From a virus (taxonomy: Duplodnaviria > Heunggongvirae > Uroviricota > Caudoviricetes): a DNA stretch of 64,000 bases. A program made the translations under genes and the position numbers. Shown piece after piece: positions 3,999 to 51,088 of this stretch. A model generated the notes under the pieces. That model was not told the DNA's origin. It worked only from the letters and a program-made list of their open reading frames with translations, and ran no database searches. Position 1 is the stretch's first letter. Each line of letters begins with the position of its first letter. Where the stretch lies: the IMG/VR virus record IMGVR_UViG_3300032245_001714. One strand, written 5' to 3'.

Positions 3999-4036
3999 CC
4001 CAAATGACTCCACATATGCTCTGTGATATATAGCTT

Positions 4037-4258
4037 ATGAACATAGATTTTCCAAAGGCCAAATTCTTGTCTAGGTTTGGCAACATCAAGGCCAGCAAGG
4101 AGGAATCCGACCGCATGTTTAGGCAGTTTCTCTGGGAGGAGGAGGAGAGGGAGCGAATGATGTTCACGAGGGAGGCGGAGCAAGCCGGTGGCGCTGGCTT
4201 AACTCAAGACTACATGGAATATGATTATATGATAGATGCAGCAAATTACGTAGACTAA
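4037..4258 (+). CDS. hypothetical protein (73 aa)
   Basis: The ATG is preceded by TGATATATAGCTT. Confidence 0.5.
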   Translation: MNIDFPKAKFLSRFGNIKASKEESDRMFRQFLWEEEERERMMFTREAEQAGGAGLTQDYMEYDYMIDAANYVD

Positions 4259-4274
4259 AAACAAAAAACATAAA

Positions 4275-4832
4275 ATGGGAATAACAACAAGAGAATTTGG
4301 TCCTTATGCTAAAGGCAGCAGGCTAACCACAGCCGAGATGGATGAGAACTTCAACTACCTATTAGAGTTGAATACAACCCTCTATGCTGGAACTTTTTTC
4401 GATACCACCACACAGCCTACCGGTGGCACGGGATCAGCAAACCAAGTGGCAATCAATTCAACACAGGCCAATAATGGTTTCTCACTAGCGAACAATACAA
4501 TAACGGTTACTAATGCTGGAACCTATTGTTTCATTGCCAACATGCAACTTTCATTTACTGGTGGATCCTCAAATCTTAATGTAACTGTATGGTATACTGT
4601 AGACGATGTAATTGTTCCTAACTCAGCATTTACATTCACCACATCATCAGCCCAAAATGACCAGACGCTAGCATCCATAACAGATACAATATCGTTAACA
4701 GCTGGCCAAACCCTAAAATTTTACTGGTGGTCTGGATCTGCAGGAATGAAACTTTTAGCAACCCCTGCAGCCTCCAATCCAACAAGACCCCTATCACCAT
4801 CTGTAAATTTGACTATATTTAACGTGGGGTAA
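4275..4832 (+). CDS. hypothetical Thr/Ser/Asn-rich, beta-rich protein (185 aa), possibly structural or fibre-like
   Basis: Composition resembles phage fibre or adhesin domains; no motif recognised. Confidence 0.5.
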   Translation: MGITTREFGPYAKGSRLTTAEMDENFNYLLELNTTLYAGTFFDTTTQPTGGTGSANQVAINSTQANNGFSLANNTITVTNAGTYCFIANMQLSFTGGSSNLNVTVWYTVDDVIVPNSAFTFTTSSAQNDQTLASITDTISLTAGQTLKFYWWSGSAGMKLLATPAASNPTRPLSPSVNLTIFNVG

Positions 4833-4908
4833 TAAATTAAATCAGGAGGAATAAAAATGTGATACCCACAAAAAAACCTGGGGGTAAGTCCAGGCCTCTC
4901 TATATTCT

Positions 4909-4953
4909 TTTCATGCTCTATATATCATTGGATGTGGTGGGCGGGTCTCCTGG
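4909..4953. repeat. GC-rich dispersed intergenic repeat, copy 2
   Basis: tatatatcattggatgtggtgggcgggtctcctggggaattga. Confidence 0.55.
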
Positions 4954-5045
4954 GGAATTGAGTCCGGGAAGTCACCAGGTGGATGGGCTGGCCTCTCTAG
5001 AGAATCCCACAAAAAATCCCGGTTAGTTGAAGAATATATAAGGGC

Positions 5046-6041
5046 ATGAAACATCTCCTTAATTTTTCGGGTTTCCTCTTTGAGGACAACGGCTCTTCGG
5101 CCGATCAGACACCTTGCACCTACTATCAGGACAAGCAGGGTGACAGTGGTTATAAAAACTTCTGGGCGGAATACAGTAACATGTCACCCGAGGAACAAAA
5201 GACCAAAATGAAGGGGATCACAGCTGGAGTCTTGGATTTGCTTGAGGTCATCAAGGACGAGTACACCAAGTGGTACAGCAATCCTGCCACCATAAAGAAG
5301 TTCACGCAGGAGGAGGATAAGGTTAGAATGAAACTGCTCTCTGAGTACCTGCCTAAAATAACCTGCAAGCTTCACACCAAGCCAGATCCTAATGCCTCTA
5401 AGATGAAGCAGGCATCATGGGGTTGGTTTTCCGCAAAAGCTCCATATATTATAAATGTGGCTCTTTACAACTTCTTCAACGGCAAGTCCACAGGAAACAA
5501 GAGCATAAAGGACACTATCAAACACGAAATGGCCCACGCTATTGACGCCTACTTCTCCGAGAACGGGGTGAGAGCCTATGACGCCACCCACCCTCCAATC
5601 ACAACGCCGGGCGAGTATGAAAGAATCTACCTGATGAATGACAAGGATCAATTTGCAAGACTTAATATTCTCAGAGGCATCATCAAAGCCGGTCCGACTG
5701 ACTCTGGCAAACAGCTGCTGGTTAAGTTTTTAGATGAAGCGAAAAAGGGCAAGATCTCCTCAGAGAGCTTTGATTTTAAAGGCGGTGTTAGTCCCAAAGG
5801 TGACCTTTATCTTTTAAGAATGATCCCCAAGAGGATGGAGGGAGTGAAAGGCAAGGTGCCTTTAGATGTGGCCAAGAAGGTCTACTCCAGCATGATGAAT
5901 AAAGGAGCCATTATGGTGGGAGGCAAAGAAAACTTCAATCTAGAGCAGCTCTTCTCAAATTTTGGTAGGATCATCAACAACGAGATTGTGATCAATATGA
6001 GCGATATAGCCCAATTGAACTACTCATCCAAAAACATGTAA
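5046..6041 (+). CDS. putative zinc metallopeptidase (HExxH) carrying the N-terminal tag (331 aa)
   Basis: HEMAH in IKHEMAHAIDAYF; N-terminus MKHLLNFSGFLFE; ATATATAAGGGC lies immediately upstream of the ATG. Confidence 0.55.
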   Translation: MKHLLNFSGFLFEDNGSSADQTPCTYYQDKQGDSGYKNFWAEYSNMSPEEQKTKMKGITAGVLDLLEVIKDEYTKWYSNPATIKKFTQEEDKVRMKLLSEYLPKITCKLHTKPDPNASKMKQASWGWFSAKAPYIINVALYNFFNGKSTGNKSIKDTIKHEMAHAIDAYFSENGVRAYDATHPPITTPGEYERIYLMNDKDQFARLNILRGIIKAGPTDSGKQLLVKFLDEAKKGKISSESFDFKGGVSPKGDLYLLRMIPKRMEGVKGKVPLDVAKKVYSSMMNKGAIMVGGKENFNLEQLFSNFGRIINNEIVINMSDIAQLNYSSKNM

Positions 6042-6082
6042 AGACTGTCTCAGAACCCCAGATTTATCGTTTCTCGTGTTCT

Positions 6083-6123
6083 GTGTATCATTGGCCGTGG
6101 GTGGGCTGGGCTCCTGAGAATTT
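6083..6123. repeat. GC-rich dispersed intergenic repeat, copy 3 (degenerate)
   Basis: gtgtatcattggccgtgggtgggctgggctcctgagaattt. Confidence 0.45.
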
Positions 6124-6128
6124 AGCGG

Positions 6129-6141
6129 GATATATAGGTCA
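6129..6141 (+). promoter_or_regulatory. GATATATAGG start-proximal motif (representative copy)
   Basis: gatatataggtca followed by ATG. Confidence 0.4.
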
Positions 6142-7392
6142 ATGAAACGTTTACTCACATATCAACTATTTAAAAATCGGTTCGGTCTAAGTCGAGAGCA
6201 GACCAAATGGCTAAACTCTGTTGCTCCTAACCGGTGGAGTTTAAATCCTCAAACCGGTCTCATTGACGTGGACGGAAGTTTTGATTGCAGGAGACAGCTA
6301 CTAACGGATTTCAAGGGATTGCGTTTCGGAGATGTGAGTGGTGATTTCAATTTTCAAGGCAACCAGATCACAAGTCTGGACGGAGCACCTGAGACTGTTG
6401 GTGGGGATTTCCGCTGTCAAGATAATCAGATCACAAGTCTGAAAGGAGCACCGGTGACCGTTAAAGGTAATTTCCTCTGTAGCCATAATCAGATCGCAAG
6501 TCTGGACGGAGCACCGGAGAGTGTTGGTAAGAGTTTCATCTGTAACACTAATAAACTCACAAGTCTGAAAGGAGCACCGCAGACTGTTGGTGGAGAGTTC
6601 GCTTGTTGCTTTAATGAGATCACAAGTCTGGAGGGAGCACCACAGAGTGTTACTTATTTCAATTGTGGCTACAATAAAAAACTCACAAGTCTGAAAGGAG
6701 CACCGGAGAGTGTTGATGGGGATTTCAATTGTGAGCGCTGTGGACTCACAAATCTGGACGGAGCACCCGAGACTGTTGGTGGGGATTTCAAATGTAACCA
6801 TAATCAGCTCACAAGTCTGAAAGGAGCACCAGGGACTGTTAAAGGTGATTTCAAATGTAACCATAATCAGCTCACAAGTCTGGAGGGAGCACCACAGACT
6901 GTTGGTGGGGATAATCCCGACCAGAGTGGGGATTTCGAATGTAACCATAATCAGCTCACAAGTCTAAAGGGAGCACCAGGGACTGTTAAAGGTGATTTCT
7001 TATGTAACGATAATCCACTCACAAGTCTGGAGGGCTCACCAGAAAAAGTTGGAAGATTTTATGCCGGTGAACTGGGAGATTATAATGATCCATTAAATTG
7101 GCCTGAAGGCTGGAACAAAGAGGATAAAGGGTTTACCAAAACTCTCGCATCCAAACTAAAAGAAATTGATGCTCTTGGATCTGATGCAGATAAGAGTAAA
7201 TTAATCTCTATGTTACTGTCACTGACAGAGCCTAATTTACTAGACTATCTGATATCTAATAACCTTTCCCCATCAGATAAGTTCACGATCTATGGAGCAA
7301 TTAAAGCCAATATTCCTGATGTTTGGAATAAGATTAAAGACAAAGTGGATCCTGACGGTGCCACTTCCGATTTGATGGACCTTGGGTTTTAA
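6142..7392 (+). CDS. LRR-like 21-aa repeat protein, family member 1 (about 11 repeats, conserved C-terminal domain ending DLMDLGF)
   Basis: Repeats follow GDFxCxxNxLTSLxGAPxTVx; N-terminus MKRLLTYQLF; GATATATAGG sits 3 nt before the ATG. Confidence 0.8.
   Translation: MKRLLTYQLFKNRFGLSREQTKWLNSVAPNRWSLNPQTGLIDVDGSFDCRRQLLTDFKGLRFGDVSGDFNFQGNQITSLDGAPETVGGDFRCQDNQITSLKGAPVTVKGNFLCSHNQIASLDGAPESVGKSFICNTNKLTSLKGAPQTVGGEFACCFNEITSLEGAPQSVTYFNCGYNKKLTSLKGAPESVDGDFNCERCGLTNLDGAPETVGGDFKCNHNQLTSLKGAPGTVKGDFKCNHNQLTSLEGAPQTVGGDNPDQSGDFECNHNQLTSLKGAPGTVKGDFLCNDNPLTSLEGSPEKVGRFYAGELGDYNDPLNWPEGWNKEDKGFTKTLASKLKEIDALGSDADKSKLISMLLSLTEPNLLDYLISNNLSPSDKFTIYGAIKANIPDVWNKIKDKVDPDGATSDLMDLGF
6340..7040 (+). 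repeat. tandem 63-bp DNA repeats inside the LRR-like gene
   Basis: Near-identical units such as aatcagatcacaagtctgaaaggagcacc...gttggtggggatttc recur about 11 times. Confidence 0.7.
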
Positions 7393-7395
7393 TGC

Positions 7396-7408
7396 GATAT
7401 ATAGCAAT
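7396..7408 (+). promoter_or_regulatory. GATATATAG start-proximal motif
   Basis: taatgcgatatatagcaat followed by ATG; the upstream gene's stop TAA lies inside it. Confidence 0.4.
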
Positions 7409-8695
7409 ATGAAAAATCTTCTACCTTTCTCCCTATTCGAATCCAAGTCCATCACACCCGAGGATTGGGCTGGCAACTGGCAGGATCTGCCTGAGTGGAA
7501 ACTCCTACAACTAATGGGATTTGAAATCCTTGACACCAACCGCAATGGCACGGTCACTATCGGTAGTTCATACTCTGGGGTCAGACCTAGACTCACCTCT
7601 GCTGGCTATGTGAGAACCGCGGATCAGGGTTATGTGTATGATGATAAGGGGAAAGATCCAATGCCTAGAATGTTAGGCTATGTCATTATGAGATTTGCCA
7701 AGAATGGTATTCCTGGAATTCCCACCAAAGAACTAGATGCCATTATGAAGGCCAATCCTGGACTGGTGAAATACCTGCTGGATTTACCTAAGATTAGGGA
7801 GGAGGTTTTAAGCAGGACTGGGATCACTGACACCACTGGGGATATTTATAAAAAATATGGACTGAGTCCATCCGTAGTTAAATGGTTGGATAAATCCACA
7901 AAAAAAACCTGGAAGATCAATGAAACTACCGGAGAGATCGACGTTGAGGGTAGTTTTATCAATAATACTGATAACAAGCTCGGATTTAGAGGGGTTAAGT
8001 TTGGAGTGGTTGATAGGAATTTTGACATTGGAAATTTAGGACTCACCTCCCTAGAGGGAGCTCCTCGTGAGGTTGGAGGGAATTTCTATTGCGTGGGAAA
8101 TAAAGGGCTCACATCACTCGAATGGGCACCGCAGAAAGTGGGAGGAAATTTCGGTGTCAATAGCAACGGTCTCACCTCGCTCAAGTGGTCACCCCTGGTG
8201 GTTAAAGGTGATTTTTCCTGCCCTAGAAATGAGCTTAAAACATTAGAGGGAGCCCCAAAGAAAGTGATAGGCCGTTTTAATTGCTCTGATAATCCTCTGG
8301 TCTCTCTTTTAGGAGCGCCCGAAAGCCTCGGAGAATTTTCGTTATCAACCTGGAGCACTCCCCCTGATATGAGACTATTGGATTTTCGTAATGGCTGGGA
8401 CAAAAAAGGTGATGTTGAATTTTTAAAAACCATTCTTGCAAAGTTAAAAGAGATTGACGATCTCCCTAATGACAGAACAAAGCCTGTTGATAAATCAAAA
8501 TTAAAATTAATGCTTCTCTCGCTGACTGGTGCAGATAGTGTTGCCGATTTTCTTTTATCTGGCAAGATTCCAGTAGGAGACAAATTCGAAATCTACGGAA
8601 TGGTTAAAGACTCGCTCCCAGAGGTATGGGATAAAGTTAAGGACAAAGTAGATCCAGACGGAGCCACTTCGGATTTGCTTGACCTTGGGTTTTAA
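7409..8695 (+). CDS. LRR-like repeat protein, family member 2
   Basis: Start revised to MKNLLPFSLFES; the track ORF ran in-frame through the upstream gene. LRR-like repeats (GAPREVGGNFYCVGNKGLTSLEWAP...) and a C-terminus ...DPDGATSDLLDLGF. Confidence 0.75.
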   Translation: MKNLLPFSLFESKSITPEDWAGNWQDLPEWKLLQLMGFEILDTNRNGTVTIGSSYSGVRPRLTSAGYVRTADQGYVYDDKGKDPMPRMLGYVIMRFAKNGIPGIPTKELDAIMKANPGLVKYLLDLPKIREEVLSRTGITDTTGDIYKKYGLSPSVVKWLDKSTKKTWKINETTGEIDVEGSFINNTDNKLGFRGVKFGVVDRNFDIGNLGLTSLEGAPREVGGNFYCVGNKGLTSLEWAPQKVGGNFGVNSNGLTSLKWSPLVVKGDFSCPRNELKTLEGAPKKVIGRFNCSDNPLVSLLGAPESLGEFSLSTWSTPPDMRLLDFRNGWDKKGDVEFLKTILAKLKEIDDLPNDRTKPVDKSKLKLMLLSLTGADSVADFLLSGKIPVGDKFEIYGMVKDSLPEVWDKVKDKVDPDGATSDLLDLGF

Positions 8696-8698
8696 TGC

Positions 8699-8711
8699 GA
8701 TATATAGGACA
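8699..8711 (+). promoter_or_regulatory. GATATATAGG start-proximal motif
   Basis: gcgatatataggaca followed by ATG. Confidence 0.4.
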
Positions 8712-9620
8712 ATGAAGCATGTAAAATTATTCGAGGATTTTAATATTCCTACATCTCTTACTAAACAACAGATCGATTGGCTGGATAGGTGTACAAAAAA
8801 CTCTAAAGGTTGGAGTCTCAATCCATCAACGGGTCTTGTTGATGTTATGGGGAATTTCAATTGCATTCTTCAAAATCTGGAGGATTTTAAGGGGGTAAAA
8901 TTTGGACGGGTTGAAGGGAATTTCATGTGTCAAAAAAATGAGCTCAAAATTCTGACTGGAGCGCCTCTGAGTGTTGGTGGGAATTTCGATTGTAGCTCTA
9001 ATCCTCTAGAAAGTCTAGATGGATCACCAGAGACTGTTGTGGGAGATTTCAATTGCGATTGGTGTAAACCGCTTAAAAATCTGAAAGGAGCACCTCTGAG
9101 TGTTGGTGGAGATTTCTCCTGTAGCTCTAATAATCTAGAAAGTCTAGATGGAGCACCAGAGACTGTTGGTGGGAATTTCGATTGTCGCTTTAATGATCTT
9201 AAAAATCTGGAAGGAGCACCTCTGACTGTTGGCAAACTATTCAATTGTTCTCATAATATAAAACTTACCTCCTTTGCAGGAGCACCTGAAAGTGTAGGCA
9301 ACTTCGTGGGGGATGAAGGTTTATCCGGGTTATTAAATTGGTCTAAAGGCTGGGACAAAAAAGGTGATGCTGAATTTGCCAAAACCCTCCTTGCAAAGTT
9401 AAAAGAAGTGGACGATTGGAGGAATTTTCAACCTAAATTAAAAGGAATGCTTCTGTCACTGTTAGACGTTGACTGTATACTATCGAATAACTTTTCCCCT
9501 TCGGACAAGTTTGAGATCTATGGAATTATTAAAGAGACCCTGCCGGATGTTTGGTCTAAGGTTAAGGATAAATTAGATCCAGATGGAGCCACTTCCGATT
9601 TGATGGACCTTGGGTTTTAA
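8712..9620 (+). CDS. LRR-like repeat protein, family member 3
   Basis: Start revised to MKHVKLFEDF; repeats GAPLSVGGNFDCSSNPLESLDGSP...; C-terminus ...DPDGATSDLMDLGF. GATATATAGG lies upstream. Confidence 0.75.
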   Translation: MKHVKLFEDFNIPTSLTKQQIDWLDRCTKNSKGWSLNPSTGLVDVMGNFNCILQNLEDFKGVKFGRVEGNFMCQKNELKILTGAPLSVGGNFDCSSNPLESLDGSPETVVGDFNCDWCKPLKNLKGAPLSVGGDFSCSSNNLESLDGAPETVGGNFDCRFNDLKNLEGAPLTVGKLFNCSHNIKLTSFAGAPESVGNFVGDEGLSGLLNWSKGWDKKGDAEFAKTLLAKLKEVDDWRNFQPKLKGMLLSLLDVDCILSNNFSPSDKFEIYGIIKETLPDVWSKVKDKLDPDGATSDLMDLGF

Positions 9621-9660
9621 TGCGATATATAGAAAAATAATATAAAAAAAAACAATAAAA

Positions 9661-9969: not shown

Positions 9970-10005
9970 GCCGAAAAAAATCCTCATATAAAGATAAACA
10001 CGATT

Positions 10006-10698: not shown

Positions 10699-10720
10699 AT
10701 ATAACTAATCATATAGTTTA

Positions 10721-10746
10721 AGCAGGCTTCGGCCTGCTTTTTTATG
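10721..10746 (+). terminator. rho-independent terminator
   Basis: agcaggc ttcg gcctgct hairpin followed by a T run. Confidence 0.55.
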
Positions 10747-10757
10747 ATATATAAGAG

Positions 10758-11510
10758 ATGAAGCACATTAATAGCTATAAGGTTTTCGAGAGCGTAGGTA
10801 TTCTCACTTCAGAGCAGGAGGCTTGGTTAAACAAATTAACATTGAAAAATCGCTGGAACGTTAATGAGGACGGACTCGTAGATGTATATGGTGGGTTTTG
10901 GTGCAATGGTCAGGGTCTAACCGATTTCAAAGGTGTAAAATTCGGCCACATCAAGGGTAATTTCATCTGTAATAACAATCTTCTTGAATCCCTTGAAGGA
11001 GCGCCAATAAATGTTGAGGGAAGTTTTGTTTGTGATGGTAATAGACTCACGTCTTTAATCGGAGCACCTATTAGAGTGGGAGAAAGCTTTTGGTGTGACA
11101 AAAATAGAATAGTTTCTTTAGAAGGGCTTCCTGTACATATTGGTGGTAATTTTTGGGCGGCTGGTAATCCTGTCTCAGAAAAAGTTCTTGAAGCAGTGTG
11201 CCGCGAGATGCTAAAGGTAAGAATAAATTCTGATAAAAAAAGTTCTTATACAGAAGCTTTTCTAGAATGTCTTTCCAGCATTCGCATTCCTGATTCAGAT
11301 TTTGCTCTAATGTTATTCACTCTGCCTAGTGATATTTCTGACCCTATATTAGTAAAAAGAGTTAAATCTTACATCGAGAATAATCCGATTAAAAAGATAG
11401 GCTTGGTTTCGGATATAAAGAAAAAAATGCCAAATCTTTATTCTAAAATTTCTGATGAGTTTTCCTCTGATGCTGAACTAATGTCTGACTTAGGAGAATT
11501 GGGATTCTAG
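10758..11510 (+). CDS. LRR-like repeat protein, family member 4 (C-terminus ...SDLGELGF)
   Basis: MKHINSYKVFES; repeats GAPINVEGSFVCDGNRLTSLIGAP...; GATATATAAG lies upstream. Confidence 0.7.
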   Translation: MKHINSYKVFESVGILTSEQEAWLNKLTLKNRWNVNEDGLVDVYGGFWCNGQGLTDFKGVKFGHIKGNFICNNNLLESLEGAPINVEGSFVCDGNRLTSLIGAPIRVGESFWCDKNRIVSLEGLPVHIGGNFWAAGNPVSEKVLEAVCREMLKVRINSDKKSSYTEAFLECLSSIRIPDSDFALMLFTLPSDISDPILVKRVKSYIENNPIKKIGLVSDIKKKMPNLYSKISDEFSSDAELMSDLGELGF

Positions 11511-11554
11511 GGATCTTTTTTTACGATATATAAGTAGACATAACCTGTAAAAAC

Positions 11555-11704
11555 ATGATAAAAACCGCAATATTTGCTCTTTTAATTTCATTTTCATTTG
11601 GCATTCAATCTTGTTTAATCGTTAAACAGAATAGACATAAGACCTGTTTTAAATGTGTACCCGCAAAAAAGTTAAATCACCACAGACATCATAGATTTCA
11701 CTAA
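11555..11704 (+). CDS. small Cys/His-rich lipoprotein (49 aa, read by hand)
   Basis: Manual translation: MIKTAIFALLISFSFGIQSCLIVKQNRHKTCFKCVPAKKLNHHRHHRFH. Confidence 0.3.
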   Translation: MIKTAIFALLISFSFGIQSCLIVKQNRHKTCFKCVPAKKLNHHRHHRFH

Positions 11705-11713
11705 TTCTTTATA

Positions 11714-12466
11714 ATGAAACACATTAAGACATATAGATTGTTTGAGTCAAATGTAACCTCAGAACTCACCGAGGAACAGATAGATTTTTTGAATATGGGA
11801 TTCAGCGGGAATCCTTGGTCGATGGAGGATGGATTTATAAATTCGGGATATAGCTTTGATGTTAGTGGGAATAACTTAAAGGACTTTATGGGATTAAAAT
11901 TTGGGAAAGTTTCATATTTTAATTGCTCTAAAAATCTTCTAGAATCACTAGAGGGTAGTCCTAGAAAAGTTTCCCATAGTTTTGATTGTAGTTACAATAA
12001 ACTTGAAACACTCGAAGGATCTCCTGATTTTATTGGAGGAAACTTTGATTGTTCAAACAACAATCTTTTAACACTTCAGGGTGGTCCTAGTCAGGTTTTT
12101 GAAAATTATGATTGTTCTCATAATCTTCTTGAAAATTTAGAAGGACTTCCCCAATCAGGAGAAATCGGATCTTTATATTTTAATAATAACAATGTGGTTT
12201 CTCTCAGAGGTCTTAAAGTAAATGTTGTAACCAGTGGGTTTAACGGTCAGAAAAATCCAATATCAGAATCAGCGATTCATTATATTTTACCCGAGATGCG
12301 CAAGGGTAAATCATATAAGGAGGCGTTATTAGACATATGGACTTTTAGACTAGGAGAGGAGGACAAGTCACTACTCTATCCCGATATAAAAGAGGATTTA
12401 TCTTCTGAAGAGGTTAAAAGACTGGAAATGATGGCTAGATATAACAAATCTAGACACATGTTTTAA
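11714..12466 (+). CDS. LRR-like repeat protein, family member 5 (divergent C-terminus)
   Basis: MKHIKTYRLFES; repeats LESLEGSPRKVSHSFDCSYNKLETLEGSP... Confidence 0.7.
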   Translation: MKHIKTYRLFESNVTSELTEEQIDFLNMGFSGNPWSMEDGFINSGYSFDVSGNNLKDFMGLKFGKVSYFNCSKNLLESLEGSPRKVSHSFDCSYNKLETLEGSPDFIGGNFDCSNNNLLTLQGGPSQVFENYDCSHNLLENLEGLPQSGEIGSLYFNNNNVVSLRGLKVNVVTSGFNGQKNPISESAIHYILPEMRKGKSYKEALLDIWTFRLGEEDKSLLYPDIKEDLSSEEVKRLEMMARYNKSRHMF

Positions 12467-12497
12467 ATTAAAGAATATATACAAAAAAGTAATACTA

Positions 12498-13730: not shown

Positions 13731-13793
13731 AAATCTCCAATTAATTTTTTATTTTCGAAATCTTTCCCTACATTTGTGATCTAAATTACAATT

Positions 13794-13953: not shown

Positions 13954-14055
13954 GGTCAGGTGGTGTAATGGCAACATGGGGTTCGACCCCCCAATCAACC
14001 CAGTAGTGGGACGATACAGAAAGGCAAGATACAGGTTCGAATCCTGTCCTGACCG
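13954..14055 (+). tRNA. tRNA-like gene, atypical (~102 nt)
   Basis: Acceptor GGTCAGG/CCTGACC, D arm GTGT-AATGGCA-ACAT and T arm ACAGG-TTCGAAT-CCTGT, but about 51 nt lie between the D and T arms. One hairpin there, GGGG-TTCGACC-CCCC, could carry a CGA anticodon, which would make it Ser-like. Confidence 0.5.
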
Positions 14056-15428: not shown

Positions 15429-15465
15429 AGACTTTGGATATATACTTTAAATAAAAGAGTATAAA

Positions 15466-15966: not shown

Positions 15967-16028
15967 TAATAGTCCAAAACCAACACCTATAAGGGGGATT
16001 CAGATAATATTTGAGTCCCTCTTTATTT

Positions 16029-16040
16029 GATATATAGGGT
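16029..16040 (+). promoter_or_regulatory. GATATATAGGG start-proximal motif
   Basis: tgatatatagggt followed by ATG. Confidence 0.4.
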
Positions 16041-17129
16041 ATGCCTAACATTTTAAACTACACTTCTTTTAGCAATCACATAAAAGAATCCAAAATTAAC
16101 GAGGGATTTATCCCCTCTGGAGATCCAAACTGGCCCACAAATTGGAAGGACATGCCAGAATGGAAGACCCTCCAACAACTTGGTTTTAGCGATGTGACAA
16201 CTTCACGTATGGCTTTAAATCAAACTATATTGCTAAAAAACTTTACCCGAGATCTAGGATACAAGGATGGCATAGTTCTACAAAAAAGTGGCTACATTAG
16301 GGATAAATCGGTTTCTAGTGGTTTCATTAAAAGATATAAAGATTTCCCTGTCGATCTAAAGGATATTTTAGACTACCTAATACAAAGATGGGAGAAAGAT
16401 GTCCAGAGAGACATCAGAACTAAAAACCATGGGCCTTTAACTGATGATCAAATTAAAGCAGTTAATAGAGTTACCAAAGGAAAATGGAAGTATAACGATC
16501 AAACTAAAAAAGTTGACTTTTCATCCTCAGTTGAGGTAAATTCAGATAAAGACATCAGTGATCTCTCTGGTGTTCAGTTCGGAAAGGTCGATGGCTCCTT
16601 TGTTATCAGGGTAAAAGTCAAAGATCTAAATATAGCACCAAGATATGTTGGTGGTAATTTTAGGATTGACAGTAGTGATTTCTTAAAAAATCTAATTGGA
16701 TCCCCTGATGAAATCAGAGGGTCTTTCTCTATATACGGATCAAGAGTTCCTAGGGATCTATCTGGACTGACTCTTCCTGGGAATATTAAAGGTGGATTGT
16801 ATGTGAATTCATCAGATGACTTTGGATTTCATTTTTTCCCGAGCAAATATGACTGGACAATCGAAGGTATAATGAAGGCAATTTTAGAATTCAACGGAGG
16901 TTACAACACAGGTCATCTTCCAATAAAGAATAAGGAAAGTTTGGATTCCTTACTTTCTTATCTTGAGGGTGTAGGTTCAGGACATTATCTATATAAATAT
17001 TTTGAAGATAATCCGTTGGACATCTATCTCCTAGATTCTTTACCTGAGTTAAAGGAAAAAGTTTTAAAGAAATTAGGGATCAAAGACATTGGCAGAATAG
17101 GCAAGATGATAAGATCTGGATTATACTAA
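16041..17129 (+). CDS. LRR-like family member 6 (degenerate repeats, divergent C-terminus)
   Basis: MPNILNYTSFS...KINEG; shares the N-terminal region (...DLSGVQFGKVDGSF...APRYVGGNF); GATATATAGGGT lies upstream. Confidence 0.6.
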   Translation: MPNILNYTSFSNHIKESKINEGFIPSGDPNWPTNWKDMPEWKTLQQLGFSDVTTSRMALNQTILLKNFTRDLGYKDGIVLQKSGYIRDKSVSSGFIKRYKDFPVDLKDILDYLIQRWEKDVQRDIRTKNHGPLTDDQIKAVNRVTKGKWKYNDQTKKVDFSSSVEVNSDKDISDLSGVQFGKVDGSFVIRVKVKDLNIAPRYVGGNFRIDSSDFLKNLIGSPDEIRGSFSIYGSRVPRDLSGLTLPGNIKGGLYVNSSDDFGFHFFPSKYDWTIEGIMKAILEFNGGYNTGHLPIKNKESLDSLLSYLEGVGSGHYLYKYFEDNPLDIYLLDSLPELKEKVLKKLGIKDIGRIGKMIRSGLY

Positions 17130-17144
17130 ATCGAATTATATTAG

Positions 17145-17831
17145 ATGAAAAAAATATTAAATTTTAAAGAGCTTTTTGAAGCTGCTACCAATTTTCCTAG
17201 TAACATTTCTGAAATTCCTTCCCACGAGGAGTTAAGTAAACTTCCAAGTTTTTTGATGTTTAAAAATTTTATGCCCGCATCTTGGGTCACAGGTAGTGTT
17301 GCATACAAGAATGGGACAAGAACTTTAGGAATGGGGCCTGTGGTTTCTATTGACGGAAAACCATTTCATGTTTTTAATTTTTATCCTTTAAAAGGTCAGA
17401 TAATAAGAGATGGTTATACAGTTAGAAGGTGCAATCTTGTTACTATGGATGACTGGAATAAAGCCGTTGAGAATATGAGCAACTACTTCATTTCCACTCT
17501 TCTACCAAGAATCGGATTCAGAAATAATTACAACAGCAACATTGCTAAATTAAAAGCTGGAAAAAACCCAGAACTCATGAAAGAGATTCTCACAAATTCA
17601 GCAAAATTAGATCCATTTCCCGGATTGATTGAATATATTCTGGTATCCGCTCTATTAAATTCTGAAGATTCTAGTGAAATTGTAGATTTAATTTATGCGA
17701 GTCCCTATAAATTTAAAATCATGAGCTCTCTTAAAAAGAATAGTCCAGAGGTTTGGAAAATACTTAAAAATAAATTAGGTGATCTTGATTCGGTAGAAGC
17801 CTCTGCTGATTTGGGAGATCTAGGGTTTTAA
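17145..17831 (+). CDS. paralog of the LRR-family C-terminal domain (no repeats), ending ADLGDLGF
   Basis: MKKILNFKELFEA...; C-terminus PEVWKILKNKLGDLDSVEASADLGDLGF. Confidence 0.6.
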   Translation: MKKILNFKELFEAATNFPSNISEIPSHEELSKLPSFLMFKNFMPASWVTGSVAYKNGTRTLGMGPVVSIDGKPFHVFNFYPLKGQIIRDGYTVRRCNLVTMDDWNKAVENMSNYFISTLLPRIGFRNNYNSNIAKLKAGKNPELMKEILTNSAKLDPFPGLIEYILVSALLNSEDSSEIVDLIYASPYKFKIMSSLKKNSPEVWKILKNKLGDLDSVEASADLGDLGF

Positions 17832-18316: not shown

Positions 18317-18318
18317 AA

Positions 18319-19440: not shown

Positions 19441-19491
19441 TCCTGTATATATCCAATATACAATGATACTGAGGAGGATATATAGTCTGTA

Positions 19492-19992
19492 ATGGAGCAT
19501 ATTTTACTTTTTGAGAGCTTTTTAAAAAGGGACGATTTAGGATCTAGATCCAGATTTATAGGAAATTTAGTGTTTGACTTTTGGCATTTCGACACCAATA
19601 TTCAAAAATCTAATCTACCTCCTTCCTTAAACTCAGAAGAGCTTATCGAATTAGCCCCAAGCATTGCTCAGGGATATTTCACTAAAGGTAAAGGACCTGG
19701 AACATACCTAGGATGCGAGGAATCACCGACGGGAGAATTTGTTTCTATCGTTTTAACTGAACCCTCTCCCTTGAAATTTGACTTTGAAGTTTTTGACAGC
19801 GAATACGAAAGAGTGTGCGAGATTAAAAATACAAGCTTTGACACTCTTCTTAGTGATATTTCTAAGCTTGAAAATAGATTTAAAGTTGCTTCAATACTAA
19901 AAAAGACCCCGGATCTCTGGGATATATTAAAAAGAAATAACGATGCTGACTCGGCTTCGGCTTCTGCAGATCTGGGAGAACTTGGATTTTAA
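19492..19992 (+). CDS. paralog of the LRR-family C-terminal domain, ending ADLGELGF
   Basis: MEHILLFESF...; C-terminus DLWDILKRNNDADSASASADLGELGF; GGATATATAGTCTGTA lies upstream. Confidence 0.6.
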   Translation: MEHILLFESFLKRDDLGSRSRFIGNLVFDFWHFDTNIQKSNLPPSLNSEELIELAPSIAQGYFTKGKGPGTYLGCEESPTGEFVSIVLTEPSPLKFDFEVFDSEYERVCEIKNTSFDTLLSDISKLENRFKVASILKKTPDLWDILKRNNDADSASASADLGELGF

Positions 19993-20009
19993 TTTTACAA
20001 CATAAAGAT

Positions 20010-21050
20010 ATGAAAAGAATACTAGATTTTAAAATTTTCGAATCCTCATCAAATTTAACTGAGGAGCAAGAACAATTCCTCGAAGAGGTGGTTGACGGTG
20101 AATGGGAGTACAACTCCTTAACCAGAAGAATAGACATCCAAGGAGACTTGGATTGCTCCGATCACGATCTATCGGATTTTAAAGGAATTCTATTTGGAAC
20201 AGTCTCAGGAAACTTTGATTGTAGCCACAACGACTTAGATGGTCTAAAGGGTGCACCAGAAGAAGTTGGGGGTAGCTTTGATTGCGACTACAATAAATTA
20301 ACAAGTTTAAAGAATGGACCTTTAACAGTTGGAGTTGATTTCAATTGCTCTTATAACAAGAAGCTAAAAAGTTTAGAATTTGCCCCTAGTGAAATCGGAG
20401 GTAAAGTTGATTGCTCACATTGCGGATTAACTTCATTAGAAGGATTACCTAAAAAGATAAACGGCAGTTTAATCTGTAGCTATAATAATTTAGAGGATCT
20501 TTCAGGAGCTCCTAAATCAGTTAGATCTCTTATGGCTCAAAATAATGATCTTGAAACATTGGAAGGATGTCCGGAAGATATTTCTAAGAACATTAATGTC
20601 AGTAACAATAAACTTAAGAATCTAAAAGGACTTAAACCTGGCACGACATCTATTAAAGGAAACATGGATTTTTCTAAAAATCAGATCACAGATATAAGCG
20701 ATATTCCAATCCCTCAAGGAACCGTAAATTTTGAGGAGAATGGAATTGCTCCAAAAATTTATGATTCTCTTGTAAACACGTTTAAGGTAATGAAGCAATA
20801 TAATTTAAGTTTTAAAAATGCTTTACTTAGAAGTTGGGAAGATAGATGGTCCGATAAGTCTAATGTAATCAGAAATCTATTCTCATTAGCCGACGTTTCA
20901 ACTGCTTATGGTGCTATAACCGATCACCCTAAGAAGTTTGAAATAATAGATCATATTAAGAAGGAGCTTCCTGATATCTGGAAAACAATTGAAGATTACG
21001 ATAAAGAAGGTTCGGACGCATCTGCAGATCTTGCAGACTTAGGATTCTAA
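20010..21050 (+). CDS. LRR-like repeat protein, family member (C-terminus ...ADLADLGF)
   Basis: MKRILDFKIFES; repeats GAPEEVGGSFDCDYNKLTSLKNGP... Confidence 0.7.
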   Translation: MKRILDFKIFESSSNLTEEQEQFLEEVVDGEWEYNSLTRRIDIQGDLDCSDHDLSDFKGILFGTVSGNFDCSHNDLDGLKGAPEEVGGSFDCDYNKLTSLKNGPLTVGVDFNCSYNKKLKSLEFAPSEIGGKVDCSHCGLTSLEGLPKKINGSLICSYNNLEDLSGAPKSVRSLMAQNNDLETLEGCPEDISKNINVSNNKLKNLKGLKPGTTSIKGNMDFSKNQITDISDIPIPQGTVNFEENGIAPKIYDSLVNTFKVMKQYNLSFKNALLRSWEDRWSDKSNVIRNLFSLADVSTAYGAITDHPKKFEIIDHIKKELPDIWKTIEDYDKEGSDASADLADLGF

Positions 21051-21070
21051 ATAAACAAAAATATAAAAAA

Positions 21071-21499
21071 ATGAAACATATTCAAATTTTTGAAGCTTAC
21101 ACAGCAAAGGGTGATAAGATTGATAAAGCAAGAGATCTCTTCGCTATGTTAAAAGAGAAGGATTTTAGATCCGTTGAAGTTGAAGACTTTATATTTAGTC
21201 TAAATCAAAAGGAGATTAATGAGTTTAAGAAAAAATTTGCTCAAGGTGGGATAGTAAACAGAAAGAGTTTTAATCTTCTAACAAAATACTTTAAGAATTT
21301 CCTTGATCTTGAATTCCTAGATGAAGTTATAGAATCAACAAAAGATGCTTTTGAAACGCTTGAGTATGCTGCCAACTACGAGAGAAATCCCGAAGATCAG
21401 AAAAAAATGGCAAGAGATCTTCTCCAGAACAAAGACGAGATTATGAGAAGACTAAATAATTTAAAATCTAGAATAGAGAAATATCAGAGCGAAATTTAA
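21071..21499 (+). CDS. hypothetical protein (142 aa), tag-like N-terminus MKHIQIFEAY
   Basis: ORF track entry. Confidence 0.5.
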   Translation: MKHIQIFEAYTAKGDKIDKARDLFAMLKEKDFRSVEVEDFIFSLNQKEINEFKKKFAQGGIVNRKSFNLLTKYFKNFLDLEFLDEVIESTKDAFETLEYAANYERNPEDQKKMARDLLQNKDEIMRRLNNLKSRIEKYQSEI

Positions 21500-21500
21500 C

Positions 21501-23652: not shown

Positions 23653-23666
23653 GTCCTATATATCTT
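23653..23666 (-). promoter_or_regulatory. GATATATAGG start-proximal motif, minus strand
   Basis: Reverse complement: agatatataggac followed by ATG. Confidence 0.4.
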
Positions 23667-27379: not shown

Positions 27380-27452
27380 ACGGATGCAAATATATAGAAA
27401 GATTCCGAAATAAAAAAATATTTAGGGATAAATATATCATAAAACACATAAG

Positions 27453-28958: not shown

Positions 28959-29047
28959 TCTATCAGAATCCCATTTTTCCACTGTATCCAGTTTAAAAAG
29001 TTTTTAGACATAAAAGATGGATACTTTTCCTATATGTTTGGTATAAA

Positions 29048-30068: not shown

Positions 30069-30128
30069 GTCTTATATATCCCTTTTTTGTTAAATCCGGG
30101 ATATATATGGTAAAATAACCAAACAAAC

Positions 30129-33773: not shown

Positions 33774-34349
33774 TTATACCTCAGGTTTTTGGTTTTCAAG
33801 TCTATCCAATTCCTCCCTAAGTGTTTCTGATAAGTATCCTTTGTGGTATTTTGTATTGGGATCCAGAGCTTTAATCTTACTTGCTAAATCCTCTCTTATT
33901 CCGTTGTTATAGAACTTCTCTTCAATCGAATCAGCTAAATCTTGCATCTGTTCTGTTCCCGCAATTGATATTCTTAAGTCATACCACTCCCATTTTGTTT
34001 TATAATCCCAAAGCATCACACCTTTAGTTATTTTACGCTTTAAATTGCTCAAGCTTCTATTTCTAACTCGAACGATTGAATTATCATCACCAAATAAATG
34101 CAGGAATCTTAGAAACCATCTTGGACACCACCAGGGCTTGGCCTTGTTGTCCATAAATATTACCAAGGGTTCCATAGCTTTAAATATTTTTCCACTTTCC
34201 CGATAAGGAACACTTCCAAGATATCTGTACTTCTCACAAAAATTCTTGGGAAAAAACACGGCTCGAACATCATCCAATATGATATCCCTGGTGTGAATAT
34301 ACTTGTACTTCTTACCCTTAAATAATATCATAAACCTTATTTTTAACAA
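33774..34349 (-). CDS. hypothetical protein (191 aa)
   Basis: ORF track entry. Confidence 0.5.
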   Translation of the reverse strand: MLKIRFMILFKGKKYKYIHTRDIILDDVRAVFFPKNFCEKYRYLGSVPYRESGKIFKAMEPLVIFMDNKAKPWWCPRWFLRFLHLFGDDNSIVRVRNRSLSNLKRKITKGVMLWDYKTKWEWYDLRISIAGTEQMQDLADSIEEKFYNNGIREDLASKIKALDPNTKYHKGYLSETLREELDRLENQKPEV

Positions 34350-34395
34350 AGGTAATGATTATTTACGAAATAAAAAAAATTTTAAGTGGATTTTT

Positions 34396-34998: not shown

Positions 34999-35008
34999 AT
35001 CTTATATA

Positions 35009-35395
35009 TTAGGAATACTTCATTATTTTCTTAGCCTTTATAAATTTAGGATCTATTTCTCCGTCTAATGTGAATGTTAGTGTTCCCACTCCCTGAAATC
35101 CTGCTCCGAAACTCCATTCCACATCAGTTCCTATCATTTCGCTTAAAAGCTCTTTTAGATCGTCAATGTAATATGAGATTCTTTGGGGTATAAATTCTCC
35201 CATCGGACTATATCTTATGAAGAATTGGTCGAAATCGACACATTCCATTTCATCTAGATTCATACCTCTACCTCTTAGGAATCTATACACAAAATCATTA
35301 GTTTCTCTGTCTGCTATAAATTCCTCTAACATCTCTTTTTGAATTTCCTCCGGAGACGCATCTTCAAAATCCTCGTATATCTTTATTGCTTTCAA
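35009..35395 (-). CDS. hypothetical protein (128 aa), N-terminus MKAIKIYEDFED
   Basis: ORF track entry. Confidence 0.5.
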   Translation of the reverse strand: MKAIKIYEDFEDASPEEIQKEMLEEFIADRETNDFVYRFLRGRGMNLDEMECVDFDQFFIRYSPMGEFIPQRISYYIDDLKELLSEMIGTDVEWSFGAGFQGVGTLTFTLDGEIDPKFIKAKKIMKYS

Positions 35396-36279: not shown

Positions 36280-36314
36280 TGATAAAAACCTAAGATTTTA
36301 TCTATATATCCTTT

Positions 36315-41907: not shown

Positions 41908-41937
41908 TATATTTTAATTTTTTAATTTATTAGATAC

Positions 41938-44474: not shown

Positions 44475-44479
44475 TGTAA

Positions 44480-45025: not shown

Positions 45026-45030
45026 ATTAT

Positions 45031-46080: not shown

Positions 46081-46117
46081 TTTTGATCGGTTTAAGTAGT
46101 ATAAGTGAGTTTGATTT

Positions 46118-46613: not shown

Positions 46614-46625
46614 TTTAATTTGGAT

Positions 46626-47030: not shown

Positions 47031-47031
47031 T

Positions 47032-47813: not shown

Positions 47814-47814
47814 T

Positions 47815-48264: not shown

Positions 48265-48422
48265 ATTATTCTTTTATTCTTTTGGTTCTCCAGAACCAAT
48301 TACCTCTTAAATGTTTTCTGCCCTCTGGATAAAATTGGGGTTGATCAAAAGCGATCCACCACAATTCCAATTTCCAAATAAAAAATCTTCTTTCTGAAAC
48401 ATTGTATTCTAGCATCTTATTT

Positions 48423-49115
48423 CTATTTAGGCGTTGTAAAATAATAAAAATCAGTCACGTTACCACAAAAATCTATGACACTGAAAGTGCTCCTTATCTT
48501 CCCGTGAAGCTGTAGATTTTTTTTTCGATCATCGGGGTCATGTGTTTCACACGCGATCTTATCAATCCTAGAAAGGATGGATGGACTTAATGAATCAAAG
48601 ACATCATACTCAAATCCCTCGATGTCTATTTTTAAAAAATCTATTTTTTCTAGCTGATAAATCTCCATTATTTTTTTAATAGTAAACTCGATTGGATTTT
48701 TTCTGTCTGTCCATACTCTTCCCGATGGAATATAGGTATCCGCTGGGATTTCACCGGTGACTATGGAGTTACAAAAATAAACGTTATCTCTGTCCGAGTT
48801 ATTTTCAACCAGACAAGAATAATGTTCAGGACTACCTTCGATAGAGATAACTTTCTTAGCAATTCTAGAAGCTCCATGTGTAAATAATCCTATGTTTGCA
48901 CCCAAATCAACAACCACCGATCCCGGTTCGATCACGCAGTCCCACATTTGGTAACAGCAATTTTTTGGTGAATAACTAAAATAATAATTCTCCTTGTAGA
49001 AAAAATCATATTCCCAGCAGGAATCCAATTCTTTAACATGATCAAAAGTTTTATATCCATAGGTATTTGTAGCACGATCCCAATATTTCCACTTTTTACC
49101 TTCTATGTGTTCCAT
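48423..49115 (-). CDS. FkbM-family methyltransferase
   Basis: VVDLGANIGLFT, SIEGSPEHYSCLVEN, IDFLKIDIEGFEYDVF, IACETH. Confidence 0.7.
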   Translation of the reverse strand: MEHIEGKKWKYWDRATNTYGYKTFDHVKELDSCWEYDFFYKENYYFSYSPKNCCYQMWDCVIEPGSVVVDLGANIGLFTHGASRIAKKVISIEGSPEHYSCLVENNSDRDNVYFCNSIVTGEIPADTYIPSGRVWTDRKNPIEFTIKKIMEIYQLEKIDFLKIDIEGFEYDVFDSLSPSILSRIDKIACETHDPDDRKKNLQLHGKIRSTFSVIDFCGNVTDFYYFTTPK

Positions 49116-49137
49116 TTTCTATTTTTTTATTTTTTTT

Positions 49138-49779
49138 TTATTCTTCCGTGTGATGATCTTTAGGTAGAACCAGGTGCCTAACAGGTCTACCCTTCATTAT
49201 TTTCAATATCTCATTTAAGCTATAAGGCTCCAGATTGTTTCCGTCTACTCCAACGTCCATTGCTTGTCCTTCGTGGATCTTTAATCTGGGCGGTAGATGA
49301 ACATGTCCATGTAAATGAGGAACCCCTTTATTCATTCCATCCCAACTTGCTATTGGGAAGTGACAGCATACGAATTGGTACTTACCCGTCTCTTTACCCT
49401 CTGGCCTACGGATATCTATAATATCATAGCTACTAACGTGCTTGAAGTACCCCTGTACCCCCTCCTTATTATTTCTAATGTGATGATCGTGATTTCCTAA
49501 AAATAGAATAATGTTTTTGCATACTATTTTATTTCTGAACTCGATAATAGATTCGAATCCACCAAAGCTCCAGTCTCCCATATGAACCAAATAATCGTCC
49601 GGTCCAACGACCGAGTTTATTCCTGCTACTATAGCATCATTCATTTCACCTAGAGAGTGAAAATCCCGTGTACCTCTTCCTTTAGGCCAGTTTGAAACTC
49701 CACGACAAATATTTTGGTGCGAAAAATGCGAATCGGAGGTGAAAAATATGTTCTGATTTTTTTCTAATATAATTTTCAT
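49138..49779 (-). CDS. calcineurin-like metallophosphoesterase
   Basis: TSDSHF (DxH), GDWSFGG, GNHDHH, GHVH. Confidence 0.75.
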   Translation of the reverse strand: MKIILEKNQNIFFTSDSHFSHQNICRGVSNWPKGRGTRDFHSLGEMNDAIVAGINSVVGPDDYLVHMGDWSFGGFESIIEFRNKIVCKNIILFLGNHDHHIRNNKEGVQGYFKHVSSYDIIDIRRPEGKETGKYQFVCCHFPIASWDGMNKGVPHLHGHVHLPPRLKIHEGQAMDVGVDGNNLEPYSLNEILKIMKGRPVRHLVLPKDHHTEE

Positions 49780-49782
49780 TTT

Positions 49783-50922
49783 TTAATCTTTTTTAATCCA
49801 TTTTGAATCCACTGGTATTTCTTCCTCTCTATTCCAAAATGGCTTTTGATACTTTGGTTTTACTATCTTCCAGATTATATGATCGTATTTCTTTCCGTCC
49901 CACATAGCAAAACATATGGATCTTATGCTGGGCTCAACATTACAAAATTCTAGATGTTCAGCAAATTCTTTCTTAGTAGGCTCATTCTCTCGATCCCAAT
50001 ATCTTCCATATCTAAAATACTCATAGATCTTTTCCGCTCTTTCCTCGACTTTACATCGGTGATATTCTAGACTGTGTATTGTTTTCTTAACCCACTTGTC
50101 AAATTCGTCAGGAACTCTTTCTAGAAATTCTTCAATGTTTCTTCCTTCTTTTAAAAGCTCCCAGATGTCGACATTCGAGAAATTGGTCAATAGTCGATGC
50201 AATCTAACATAATCTTCGCCTTTGATCTTCATTCTAAGTCCGGATTTGAATTTAACAACAAATCCCTCAGATTCTCCGTCTATCATTTTCTTAAGCTTCT
50301 TATAATCGTCTATCCCATCGTACTTCTTAACCATCTTAAATCCCAAGTTGTTATATAAATTTACGAATCTAATACCCTCTAAATGTATGCTATTATGGTG
50401 GATTCTAAGTTCATAACCATCTTTGTTATCAATTACCCCAAGAAGTATTAAGTCCTCATAGTCATAGTTGCACACGATCCTGTTTTCGGGATAGATGATC
50501 TCGAACAGATAGGTAAATCCTGGGATCAGTCTCTCATATCTGTATTTTTTTAGGATTTCTCTACCCCTAATTGCCTGCTCAGATGCAAAAGATCCTCTGG
50601 TCGCTAAGTGCCACTCATCGGCATAATGGAAAAGTATGCCTAGAGACCCGTCCAATTTTTCGAAAACCTCGAATTCCTCATTAGGTATTTCCTCTGGCTT
50701 ATGCTCCTCCATGTTAAAAAACTTGGGGAATGGTTTAGCAATAACATTTCCCTCCCGGTCTAAAACAGTGCCTCTCATATTTAAAGTGATCTCGTCCCAA
50801 GACTCCGTGAACTGACATTCCCTTGAATAATTATAGATATCAAGCGGTAATGTCGGGTGTGGATTCCTTTCTAAAAGACCCCTCTGGATATAGGCGTTAA
50901 GAGTGTTTAAATCGTATTTCAT
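49783..50922 (-). CDS. RNA ligase, T4 Rnl1-like
   Basis: Motif I EKLDGSL, compared with T4 RnlA KEDGSL; 379 aa against T4 Rnl1 at 374 aa. Confidence 0.6.
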   Translation of the reverse strand: MKYDLNTLNAYIQRGLLERNPHPTLPLDIYNYSRECQFTESWDEITLNMRGTVLDREGNVIAKPFPKFFNMEEHKPEEIPNEEFEVFEKLDGSLGILFHYADEWHLATRGSFASEQAIRGREILKKYRYERLIPGFTYLFEIIYPENRIVCNYDYEDLILLGVIDNKDGYELRIHHNSIHLEGIRFVNLYNNLGFKMVKKYDGIDDYKKLKKMIDGESEGFVVKFKSGLRMKIKGEDYVRLHRLLTNFSNVDIWELLKEGRNIEEFLERVPDEFDKWVKKTIHSLEYHRCKVEERAEKIYEYFRYGRYWDRENEPTKKEFAEHLEFCNVEPSIRSICFAMWDGKKYDHIIWKIVKPKYQKPFWNREEEIPVDSKWIKKD

Positions 50923-51088
50923 CTCGCATTTTTCATTGTATCCTAAAATTAATCAATATTCCCGTGTTAAAAAAACAAATTGGCCATTTTTTTTGATATA
51001 TAGGGCATAAAATTAAGACTTTCCTCAGAAACATCTTAATTTTTAATTCTAAAAACAACGATATATAAAACAAACAAAAAATAAAAAA

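Follow-up and report, generated by a model that had tools for sequence, protein, structure and literature searches.

The 64-kb window analyzed here, taken from the IMG/VR record IMGVR_UViG_3300032245_001714, belongs to an uncultured large phage; with its flanks, ~100 kb were inspected in all. Close upstream of many of its start codons lies an 8-bp box, GATATATA or its variant AATATATA, which are jointly described by [G/A]ATATATA. This box is probably a phage-specific promoter, a variant of the Bacteroidota −7 box, from which leaderless or short-leader mRNAs would be made. Arguments for this reading are the enrichment of the box, its strandedness and spacing, its location at the start of transcription units, and its conservation in relatives.

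Placement and spacing of the box

The box GATATATA occurs in 20 exact copies (13 on the plus and 7 on the minus strand) versus 3.64 ± 1.87 in dinucleotide shuffles, whose maximum was 9, and GATATATAGG with up to one mismatch is present in 22 copies where 5.6 are expected. All 20 copies of GATATATA are intergenic and co-oriented with a downstream ATG. The decamer that an initial annotation had placed directly before start codons is thus indeed enriched over shuffled sequence. No other 7-mer is as enriched as ATATATA in the 60-nt stretches preceding the 97 genes; it is found before 23 of them, with 28 copies in all. Among 22 one-mismatch variants of the box, gene-start association is confined to AATATATA, with five of six copies upstream of a gene; GATTTATA (10 copies) and GATATAAA (9 copies) never precede one. 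GATATATA and AATATATA together make up 26 sites, 25 of which are upstream of and co-oriented with a gene, and none of which falls inside genes. Alignment of 20 sites yields the consensus [G/A]ATATATA, usually followed by two purines: the base right after the box is a purine at 17 sites, and the position 4 nt past it is an A at 17 sites. The C flanking the consensus in the initial annotation is not conserved.

The distance from box to ATG is bimodal. The tight class has nine sites with a gap of 4 nt, one of which is decayed, five with 5 nt, and a single one with 7 nt; this leaves 14 live starts, each of them an ATG. With a 4-nt gap, boxes on the plus strand precede ATG 4037 (box at 4025..4032; an open reading frame, ORF, of 73 aa), 10758 (10746..10753), and 16041 (16029..16036); on the minus strand they precede ATG 2368 (2373..2380; a 39-aa ORF in a copy of a GC-rich cassette), 3949 (3954..3961; pterin-4a-carbinolamine dehydratase, divergent to 4025–4032), 23652 (23657..23664), 30068 (30073..30080), 34998 (35003..35010; the AATATATA variant), and 4914 (4919..4926), the start of a decayed 4-codon ORF in a relic cassette copy. 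The 5-nt gap is found on the plus strand before ATG 5046 (5033..5040; AATATATA variant) and before the leucine-rich repeat (LRR) protein genes at 6142 (6129..6136), 7409 (7396..7403, 3 nt past the stop codon of the upstream paralog), and 8712 (8699..8706), and on the minus strand before ATG 19440 (19446..19453). The single 7-nt gap belongs to the box at 19477..19484 (+) before ATG 19492, which heads a five-gene unit (19492–22810). Protein conservation starts at residue 2 across paralogs and relatives, which argues that the ATG adjoining the box is the true start.

The leadered class comprises seven sites at 16–29 nt with A-rich leaders, plus one tandem copy 86 nt from its ATG. On the plus strand, the box at 9624..9631 is separated by 29 nt from ATG 9661; that at 11525..11532 by 22 nt from ATG 11555 (a 49-aa lipoprotein-like ORF, followed by the LRR gene at 11714); the AATATATA variant at 12474..12481 by 16 nt from ATG 12498 (an SLT transglycosylase); and those at 15437..15444 and 30100..30107 by 21 nt from ATG 15466 and 30129, respectively. 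The gene for a MoxR-like AAA ATPase (ATG 51089) has a tandem pair on the plus strand: one box at 51060..51067, with a 21-nt leader, and an upstream member at 50995..51002, right after a T-run. On the minus strand, the box at 36303..36310 leaves a 23-nt leader to ATG 36279. Every start listed in the initial annotation has its box, but this last one lies outside the 1–8 nt given there. Two of the listed starts, 2368 and 4037, head the very short ORFs mentioned above, and three sites had not been listed: 30100 (+), the tandem copy at 50995 (+), and the relic at 4919–4926 (−). The existence of two spacing classes disfavors a fixed-distance translation signal.

The box marks the heads of transcription units. 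In the first 20 kb, the two terminators with the highest scores each have a box within 5–6 nt downstream: the box at 10746 begins 6 nt past the hairpin 10720–10739, and that at 16029 begins 5 nt past the best-scoring terminator, 15991–16023. Three divergent intergenic regions of 51–87 nt (3949/4037, 19440/19492, the shortest of the three at 51 nt, and 30068/30129) hold one box per direction. With operon members counted, box-headed units contain ~40% of the window genes, and genes that have no box are mostly internal members of co-directional clusters. No box lies in 36.3–50.9 kb, in 51.1–64 kb, or in a 9.4-kb stretch of small genes that precedes the window; beyond the window end there are 3–4 further copies, including a variant before an endolysin gene. 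The description of the motif as genome-wide was therefore overstated: what we see is one regulon with 26 sites, interrupted by long box-free stretches.

Boxes with equal spacing recur in four related loci (L006, L009, L013, and L047). In L006, which has an LRR ortholog with 72% identity, 15 kb contain 11 boxes; L009, which is more distant and syntenic, has seven in 21 kb, with similar spacings of 4–7 or 15–36 nt. L009 retains the tandem pair before the AAA ATPase gene, 64–65 nt apart, although the flanks have diverged. L047, a 332-kb contig, retains boxes before the orthologs of genes just past the window end. Gene 20010 is operon-internal and has no box in the window; its L006 ortholog heads a unit and has a box directly after a T-run, which indicates that the box tracks transcription-unit structure, not gene identity. 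A pattern scan of IMG/VR retrieved further contigs of 170–219 kb, which carry extra boxes outside the search pattern, also with 4-nt spacing.

In three of the relatives, overlapping boxes of opposite orientation form a 10-bp palindrome, GATATATATC or GATATATATT (L009 1998–2007; L013 5510–5521; L047 14364–14373), situated between divergent genes of ~90–135 aa and 525 aa. This arrangement suggests a minimal bidirectional promoter.

A putative promoter and its candidate reader

Several lines of evidence bear on the host. SD-like (Shine–Dalgarno-like) 4-mers are found upstream of 4 of the 97 genes, compared with 12 ± 3 at random positions. Several window genes have a −7 box of the Bacteroidota type (TAnnTTTG), preceded by a T-run and TTTCG. 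Among bacteria, the closest relatives detected for a GalE-like gene of the phage come from marine Flavobacteriaceae (~48% identity), and the nearest cellular relatives of the sigma factor encoded in the window are from Bacteroidota. Taken together, the scarcity of SD-like 4-mers, the TAnnTTTG boxes, and these relatives suggest that the host is probably a member of Bacteroidota, likely of the Flavobacteriaceae (marine Flavobacteria), in line with the host without SD-directed initiation envisaged in the initial annotation. That annotation had also stressed that the motif leaves no room for an SD; the point is moot because no gene in the whole window has one. None of the 20-kb blocks of the window shows enrichment of E. 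coli-type (sigma-70-type) promoters.

The box can be compared with the promoter element of such a host. In Flavobacterium johnsoniae the sigma-A element is an 8-mer with T−12, A−11, T−8, T−7, T−6, and G−5 (TAHHTTTG), separated from the transcription start site (TSS) by 4 or 5 nt (PMC6847099), and in F. psychrophilum it likewise lies at −12..−5 (PMC9723704). The spacing from box to ATG, 4 nt at nine sites and 5 nt at five, equals this published gap provided that transcription starts at the A of the ATG; were the geometry shared, the TSS would thus fall on that A in both classes. The two elements have in common a length of 8 bp, the bases A−11, T−8, and T−6, and the lack of a strong upstream partner, the −33 element being weak or absent in flavobacteria too; host-type boxes coexist with the phage box in the window. 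The phage box differs at three of the six near-invariant positions, with G/A for T at −12, A for T at −7, and A for G at −5. The side elements of sigma-A promoters (TTTG near −33 and AT-rich tracts at −18/−28) are not found at the 20 aligned box sites. The phage box is also fused to start codons, whereas host leaders average 24–33 nt and ~4–5% of host mRNAs (5.5% and 3.7% in the published counts) are leaderless.

We propose that the box occupies −12..−5 and that transcription would start 4–5 nt downstream. At 14 genes, the start would then be the A of the ATG or a position 1–3 nt before it, giving leaderless mRNAs; at seven genes, the same box would give A-rich leaders of 16–29 nt. The leaderless or few-nucleotide-leader mRNAs of the initial annotation are thus retained insofar as a promoter-type signal is fused to start codons, but not for the roughly one-third of sites that have longer leaders. 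The box would be read by the host RNA polymerase core together with a phage-specified or phage-modified sigma factor, since host sigma-A, given the departures at −12, −7, and −5, probably does not read it. The box regulon would be separate from the set of genes with host-type TAnnTTTG promoters, which includes the sigma gene.

The sigma gene (62846..63379, +) codes for an extracytoplasmic function (ECF)-type protein with regions 2 and 4, 177 aa long when counted from 62846; public gene calls take a later start and give 165 aa. Its host-type −7 box, TATATTTG at 62820..62827 (+), lies 18 nt upstream and is kept as TACATTTG at the same distance in L047, where the sigma factor is 67% identical. 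The conserved host-type promoter, presumably early, fits a cascade from an early sigma factor to later promoters. The initial annotation had named this protein as a possible reader of the motif; it is a plausible candidate, though we consider that role less likely than not. Timing is a guess, with late expression suggested by the endolysin gene, which has a variant box in front of it, and by the regulon's cargo-like proteins.

Several points weigh against the promoter reading. Both promoter activity and the start site are deduced from sequence geometry, and the host's 4–5 nt gap is an assumption for an element that differs at three of six near-invariant positions. No conserved −35/−33 partner is present upstream of the 20 aligned sites, where the maximum column information is 0.6 bit. 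Little weight attaches to an A at +1 in the long-leader sites, whose leaders are rich in A over their full length. Duplication links about six sites, through the GC-rich cassette (2380, 3961, 4926) or the 3′ ends of LRR paralogs (7396, 8699, 9624), so that ~16 sites are independent. Leaderless mRNAs are rare in Bacteroidota, and efficient translation from a 5′ AUG in the host is therefore an assumption. The view covers ~100 kb of a genome of probably ~330 kb. ECF sigma factors normally need an AAC-type −35 element and a CGT-type −10 element; the box sites have no −35 and a −10 region of pure A/T, and the encoded sigma factor is therefore no obvious match for the box. The CGT box is also part of the flavobacterial ECF motif (PMC9723704).

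Alternative explanations and related systems

The box could alternatively be the promoter of a phage RNA polymerase, either a single-subunit T7-like enzyme or a multisubunit enzyme of the jumbo-phage kind, that would initiate at the purine after TATA to give leaders of 4–5 nt. The sequence ...TATA|G resembles positions −4 to +1 of T7/SP6 promoters; the yeast mitochondrial promoter reads ATATAAGTA. The purine at 17 of 20 sites, the absent −35 element, and a lineage that includes a jumbo-sized contig of 332.7 kb would suit such an enzyme. However, the conserved stretch is just 8–10 bp, the encoded sigma factor implies use of the host core enzyme, and no DxDGD catalytic motif or polymerase match was found in the ~100 kb inspected; when the window and five loci were scanned for DxDGD, LRR proteins were the only hits, and PHROG, Pfam, and PDB searches with proteins of 410–526 aa past the window end were uninformative. 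The “moraphages”, large Flavobacteriia phages described in 2025, have a core sigma factor and a T4-type prohead protease and were reported to lack RNA polymerase genes (PMC12619734); our phage may be their kin, its membership in this comparable lineage being only possible. We consider a phage polymerase unlikely. An operator, at which a phage activator or repressor overlaps weak, unrecognized promoters, appears less likely still. Its case is built on the strict 8-mer with its palindromic ATATAT core, on the L009 site at which two opposed boxes are fused into the perfect palindrome GATATATATC, and on the GC-rich repeats alongside the box in the first 6 kb; it is contradicted by the orientation toward the gene at 25 of 26 sites, by the fixed 4–5 nt gap to the ATG, and by the lack of any other conserved promoter-like sequence nearby, sigma-70-type promoters not being enriched.

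Since the box directly precedes start codons, and since read-through RNA from the tandem LRR arrays, which have no intergenic terminator, would contain it, the box might instead act in RNA, as a translation enhancer replacing the SD or as a nuclease processing site that trims polycistronic RNA to leaderless messages. The range of distances (4–29 nt) is unlike that of a ribosome-positioning signal, boxes begin 5–6 nt past the strongest terminator hairpins, at the ends of T-tails, paired boxes occupy divergent regions of 51–87 nt in which a promoter must lie, and internal operon genes whose proteins have the same N-termini lack a box; an RNA-level role is accordingly very unlikely. Nor do we see more than a slim chance that the enrichment is passive, with the box riding in a duplicated or recombining 5′ gene cassette and having no regulatory role. 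An identical 17-mer in three cassette copies, a 168-nt repeat common to three LRR junctions, and the decayed copies at 4909–4959 and 6072–6122 are what such a history would leave behind. Yet neither the flanks nor the downstream proteins of ~16 sites are related, conservation of the box is 100% inside repeats that are 72–80% identical, the box is kept across diverged relatives, and in the decayed copy at 6072–6122 both box and ATG are mutated.

Two further candidates were rejected. With an archaeal TATA box, the TSS would fall ~25 nt inside genes, and the gene content is that of a bacterial phage (sigma factor, SmpB, lipoprotein signals). An SD-like reading of the AGG after the box is contradicted by the variability of these bases (GAGC, AAGA, GCTT) and by the window-wide depletion of SD-like sequences.

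A phage-specific promoter fused to start codons, which we favor, has parallels in T4 and in Thermus phages. The T4 late promoter, TATAAATA, is a single AT-rich 8-bp element near −10 that has no −35 element and is recognized by host core enzyme carrying a phage protein of the sigma family (gp55/gp33/gp45); it serves, for example, the genes of capsid-packaged internal proteins, and its mRNAs have leaders with an SD. The phage box resembles it as a lone AT-rich 8-bp element, probably near −10, and would share with it the type of reader and possibly the service of genes for capsid cargo. It differs in sequence: only two GATAAATA variants occur in the window, upholding the distinction from the T4 motif drawn in the initial annotation. 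The sigma factor of the window is ECF-type with regions 2 and 4, not gp55-like, and no match to gp55, gp33, or gp45 appeared in general Pfam, PHROG, and NCBIfam scans, which took in 24 of the ~97 window proteins and 11 from the flanking loci L011 and L013. In the Thermus phages YS40 and Lalka27a, most transcripts are leaderless and arise from class-specific −10 elements (bioRxiv 10.64898/2026.04.20.719267). Like the box, these elements are phage-wide and lack a −35 element, transcription from them begins at the first base, A or G, of the start codon, and opposed promoters occur in short divergent intergenic regions. They differ in sequence (TAGGGT/TANNNT), in distance (6 nt to the TSS), and in host phylum; moreover, their 5′ ends have been mapped, whereas those at the phage box are predicted.

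The literature searches made here revealed no phage-specific class of promoters in this lineage of Bacteroidota phages and no large-scale leaderless expression in Bacteroidota. Relative to the known cases, the host phylum, the element sequence, and the near-obligatory fusion to the start codon are different. If confirmed, the box would provide an 8-bp marker for transcription units and true start codons in large marine phages that are uncultured and widespread, would allow a natural test of the response of SD-ignoring Bacteroidota ribosomes to a 5′-terminal AUG, and would be a compact orthogonal promoter for Flavobacteria, possibly with its own sigma factor. A regulon whose products have a common N-terminal tag would also be a lead to virion cargo and anti-host effectors.

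The N-terminal peptide and other features of the window

About 25 of the 97 proteins start with M-K-[N/H]-[I/L]-[K/L]-x-[F/Y]-x-x-F, after which [LIV]-x-E is usual and (I/L/V)NE-G is frequent; [LIVFAM]-x-E is present within residues 8–25 in 22 of the 25 peptide proteins versus 27 of the 72 others. Examples are encoded on the plus strand at 5046, 6142, 7409, 8712, 9661, 10758, 11714, 12498, 16041, 19492, 20010, 21071, 21501, 22325, 27453, 28254, 30407, 30696, and 51089, and on the minus strand at 19440, 30068, 34998, 35395, and 36279. The carriers are unrelated and include LRR paralogs, two SLT lytic transglycosylases, a DnaQ-like exonuclease, an AAA ATPase, and a pterin dehydratase. The peptide is found in 11 of the 14 putatively leaderless (tight-class) genes versus 16 of the 83 others (Fisher p = 3e-5), most of which are in box-headed operons. 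It also occurs in the relatives and in other large-phage contigs of IMG/VR.

The T4 capsid targeting sequence (CTS), MKTYQEFIAE, is a propeptide of 10–20 residues that is cleaved after Glu and is the sole feature common to diverse T-even internal proteins. Both peptides are short, N-terminal, and borne by unrelated, fast-evolving proteins, and both have a 3-residue hydrophobic spacing followed by [LIV]-x-E; the peptide of the window is ~3 residues longer and is present on at least 25 proteins in 64 kb. By analogy, the box regulon may encode virion cargo. A bolder proposal, which we consider doubtful though possible, is that large or jumbo marine Flavobacteriia phages use a three-in-one cassette for gene entry, in which a start-fused 8-bp promoter giving truly leaderless mRNA is combined with a capsid-targeting peptide (M-K-x-[IL]-x-x-[FY]-x-x-F...E) and the product is ejected as cargo. 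If this were true, captured genes (GC-rich foreign DNA, LRR arrays, lytic transglycosylases, the exonuclease, the AAA ATPase) could be plugged into late expression and virion delivery.

The LRR paralogs (PF12799, with 63-nt DNA repeats) lie at 6142–9620, 10758–12466, 16041–17831, and 19492–21050 and have a conserved C-terminus, ...DLxDLGF-stop. The family has more than 2,000 metagenomic homologs, many with both the N- and the C-terminal motif, and its copy number differs between the window and L011, which are otherwise near-identical. The first ~5 kb of the window have 49–53% GC versus ~36% elsewhere. Five copies of a GC-rich repeat, TGGTGGGCGGGTCTCCCTGGGGA, adjoin the box at 2400–2434, 3411–3433, 3970–3992, 4935–4957, and 6095–6117, and decayed combinations of repeat, box, and ATG are found at 4909–4959 (with the 4-codon ORF) and 6072–6122 (with a mutated box). 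The region 1–6200 looks like a set of duplicating 5′ cassettes in compositionally foreign DNA.

The second, host-type promoter class, composed of a T-run, TTTCG, ~13 nt, and TAnnTTTG, is exemplified at 27387..27394 (−), where the box ends 7 nt before the ATG and a leader of ~2–3 nt is expected. Further TAnnTTTG boxes lie at 1376–1383 (−), 13769–13776 (+), 29033–29040 (+), 34347–34354 (−), and 56962–56969 (−). The class precedes the sigma gene, the SmpB operon, and the tRNA region, among others. A different sequence, GGTATATAATAAAATA, is located 24 nt before a glycosyltransferase operon (62741–62790, −) and is kept in the 332-kb relative (L047 9897–9950); it could represent either a promoter of a third kind or a weak form of the box.

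The window is ~90% coding, with ~97 predicted genes. Megablast of 15 kb of it against INPHARED gave no nucleotide match among deposited phages, and in tblastn searches the MoxR-like ATPase and a Dda-type helicase share at most 29% protein identity with any deposited phage. An IMG/VR scan with the AAA ATPase as query recovered no relatives; ENA metagenome scaffolds of 105–154 kb carry proteins identical to those of the window, and a syntenic relative is present on the 332,679-bp JGI contig (L047). Along with the Dda helicase, pterin dehydratase, and ECF-type sigma factor, the phage encodes T4 Rnl1-type and PHA02142-type RNA ligases, glycosyltransferases, an IMPDH/GMP-reductase-like enzyme, Fpg, and SmpB. 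SmpB, the SsrA-binding protein of trans-translation, is encoded at 25885–26307 (−), with a score exceeding the NCBIfam equivalog cut-off; the window has no detected tmRNA. Rfam identifies three tRNA genes of 93–107 nt, at 13954–14055 (+), 57184–57290 (−), and 57722–57814 (−), of which ARAGORN calls only one (Asp, anticodon “atc”). Their extra length suggests introns or long variable arms.

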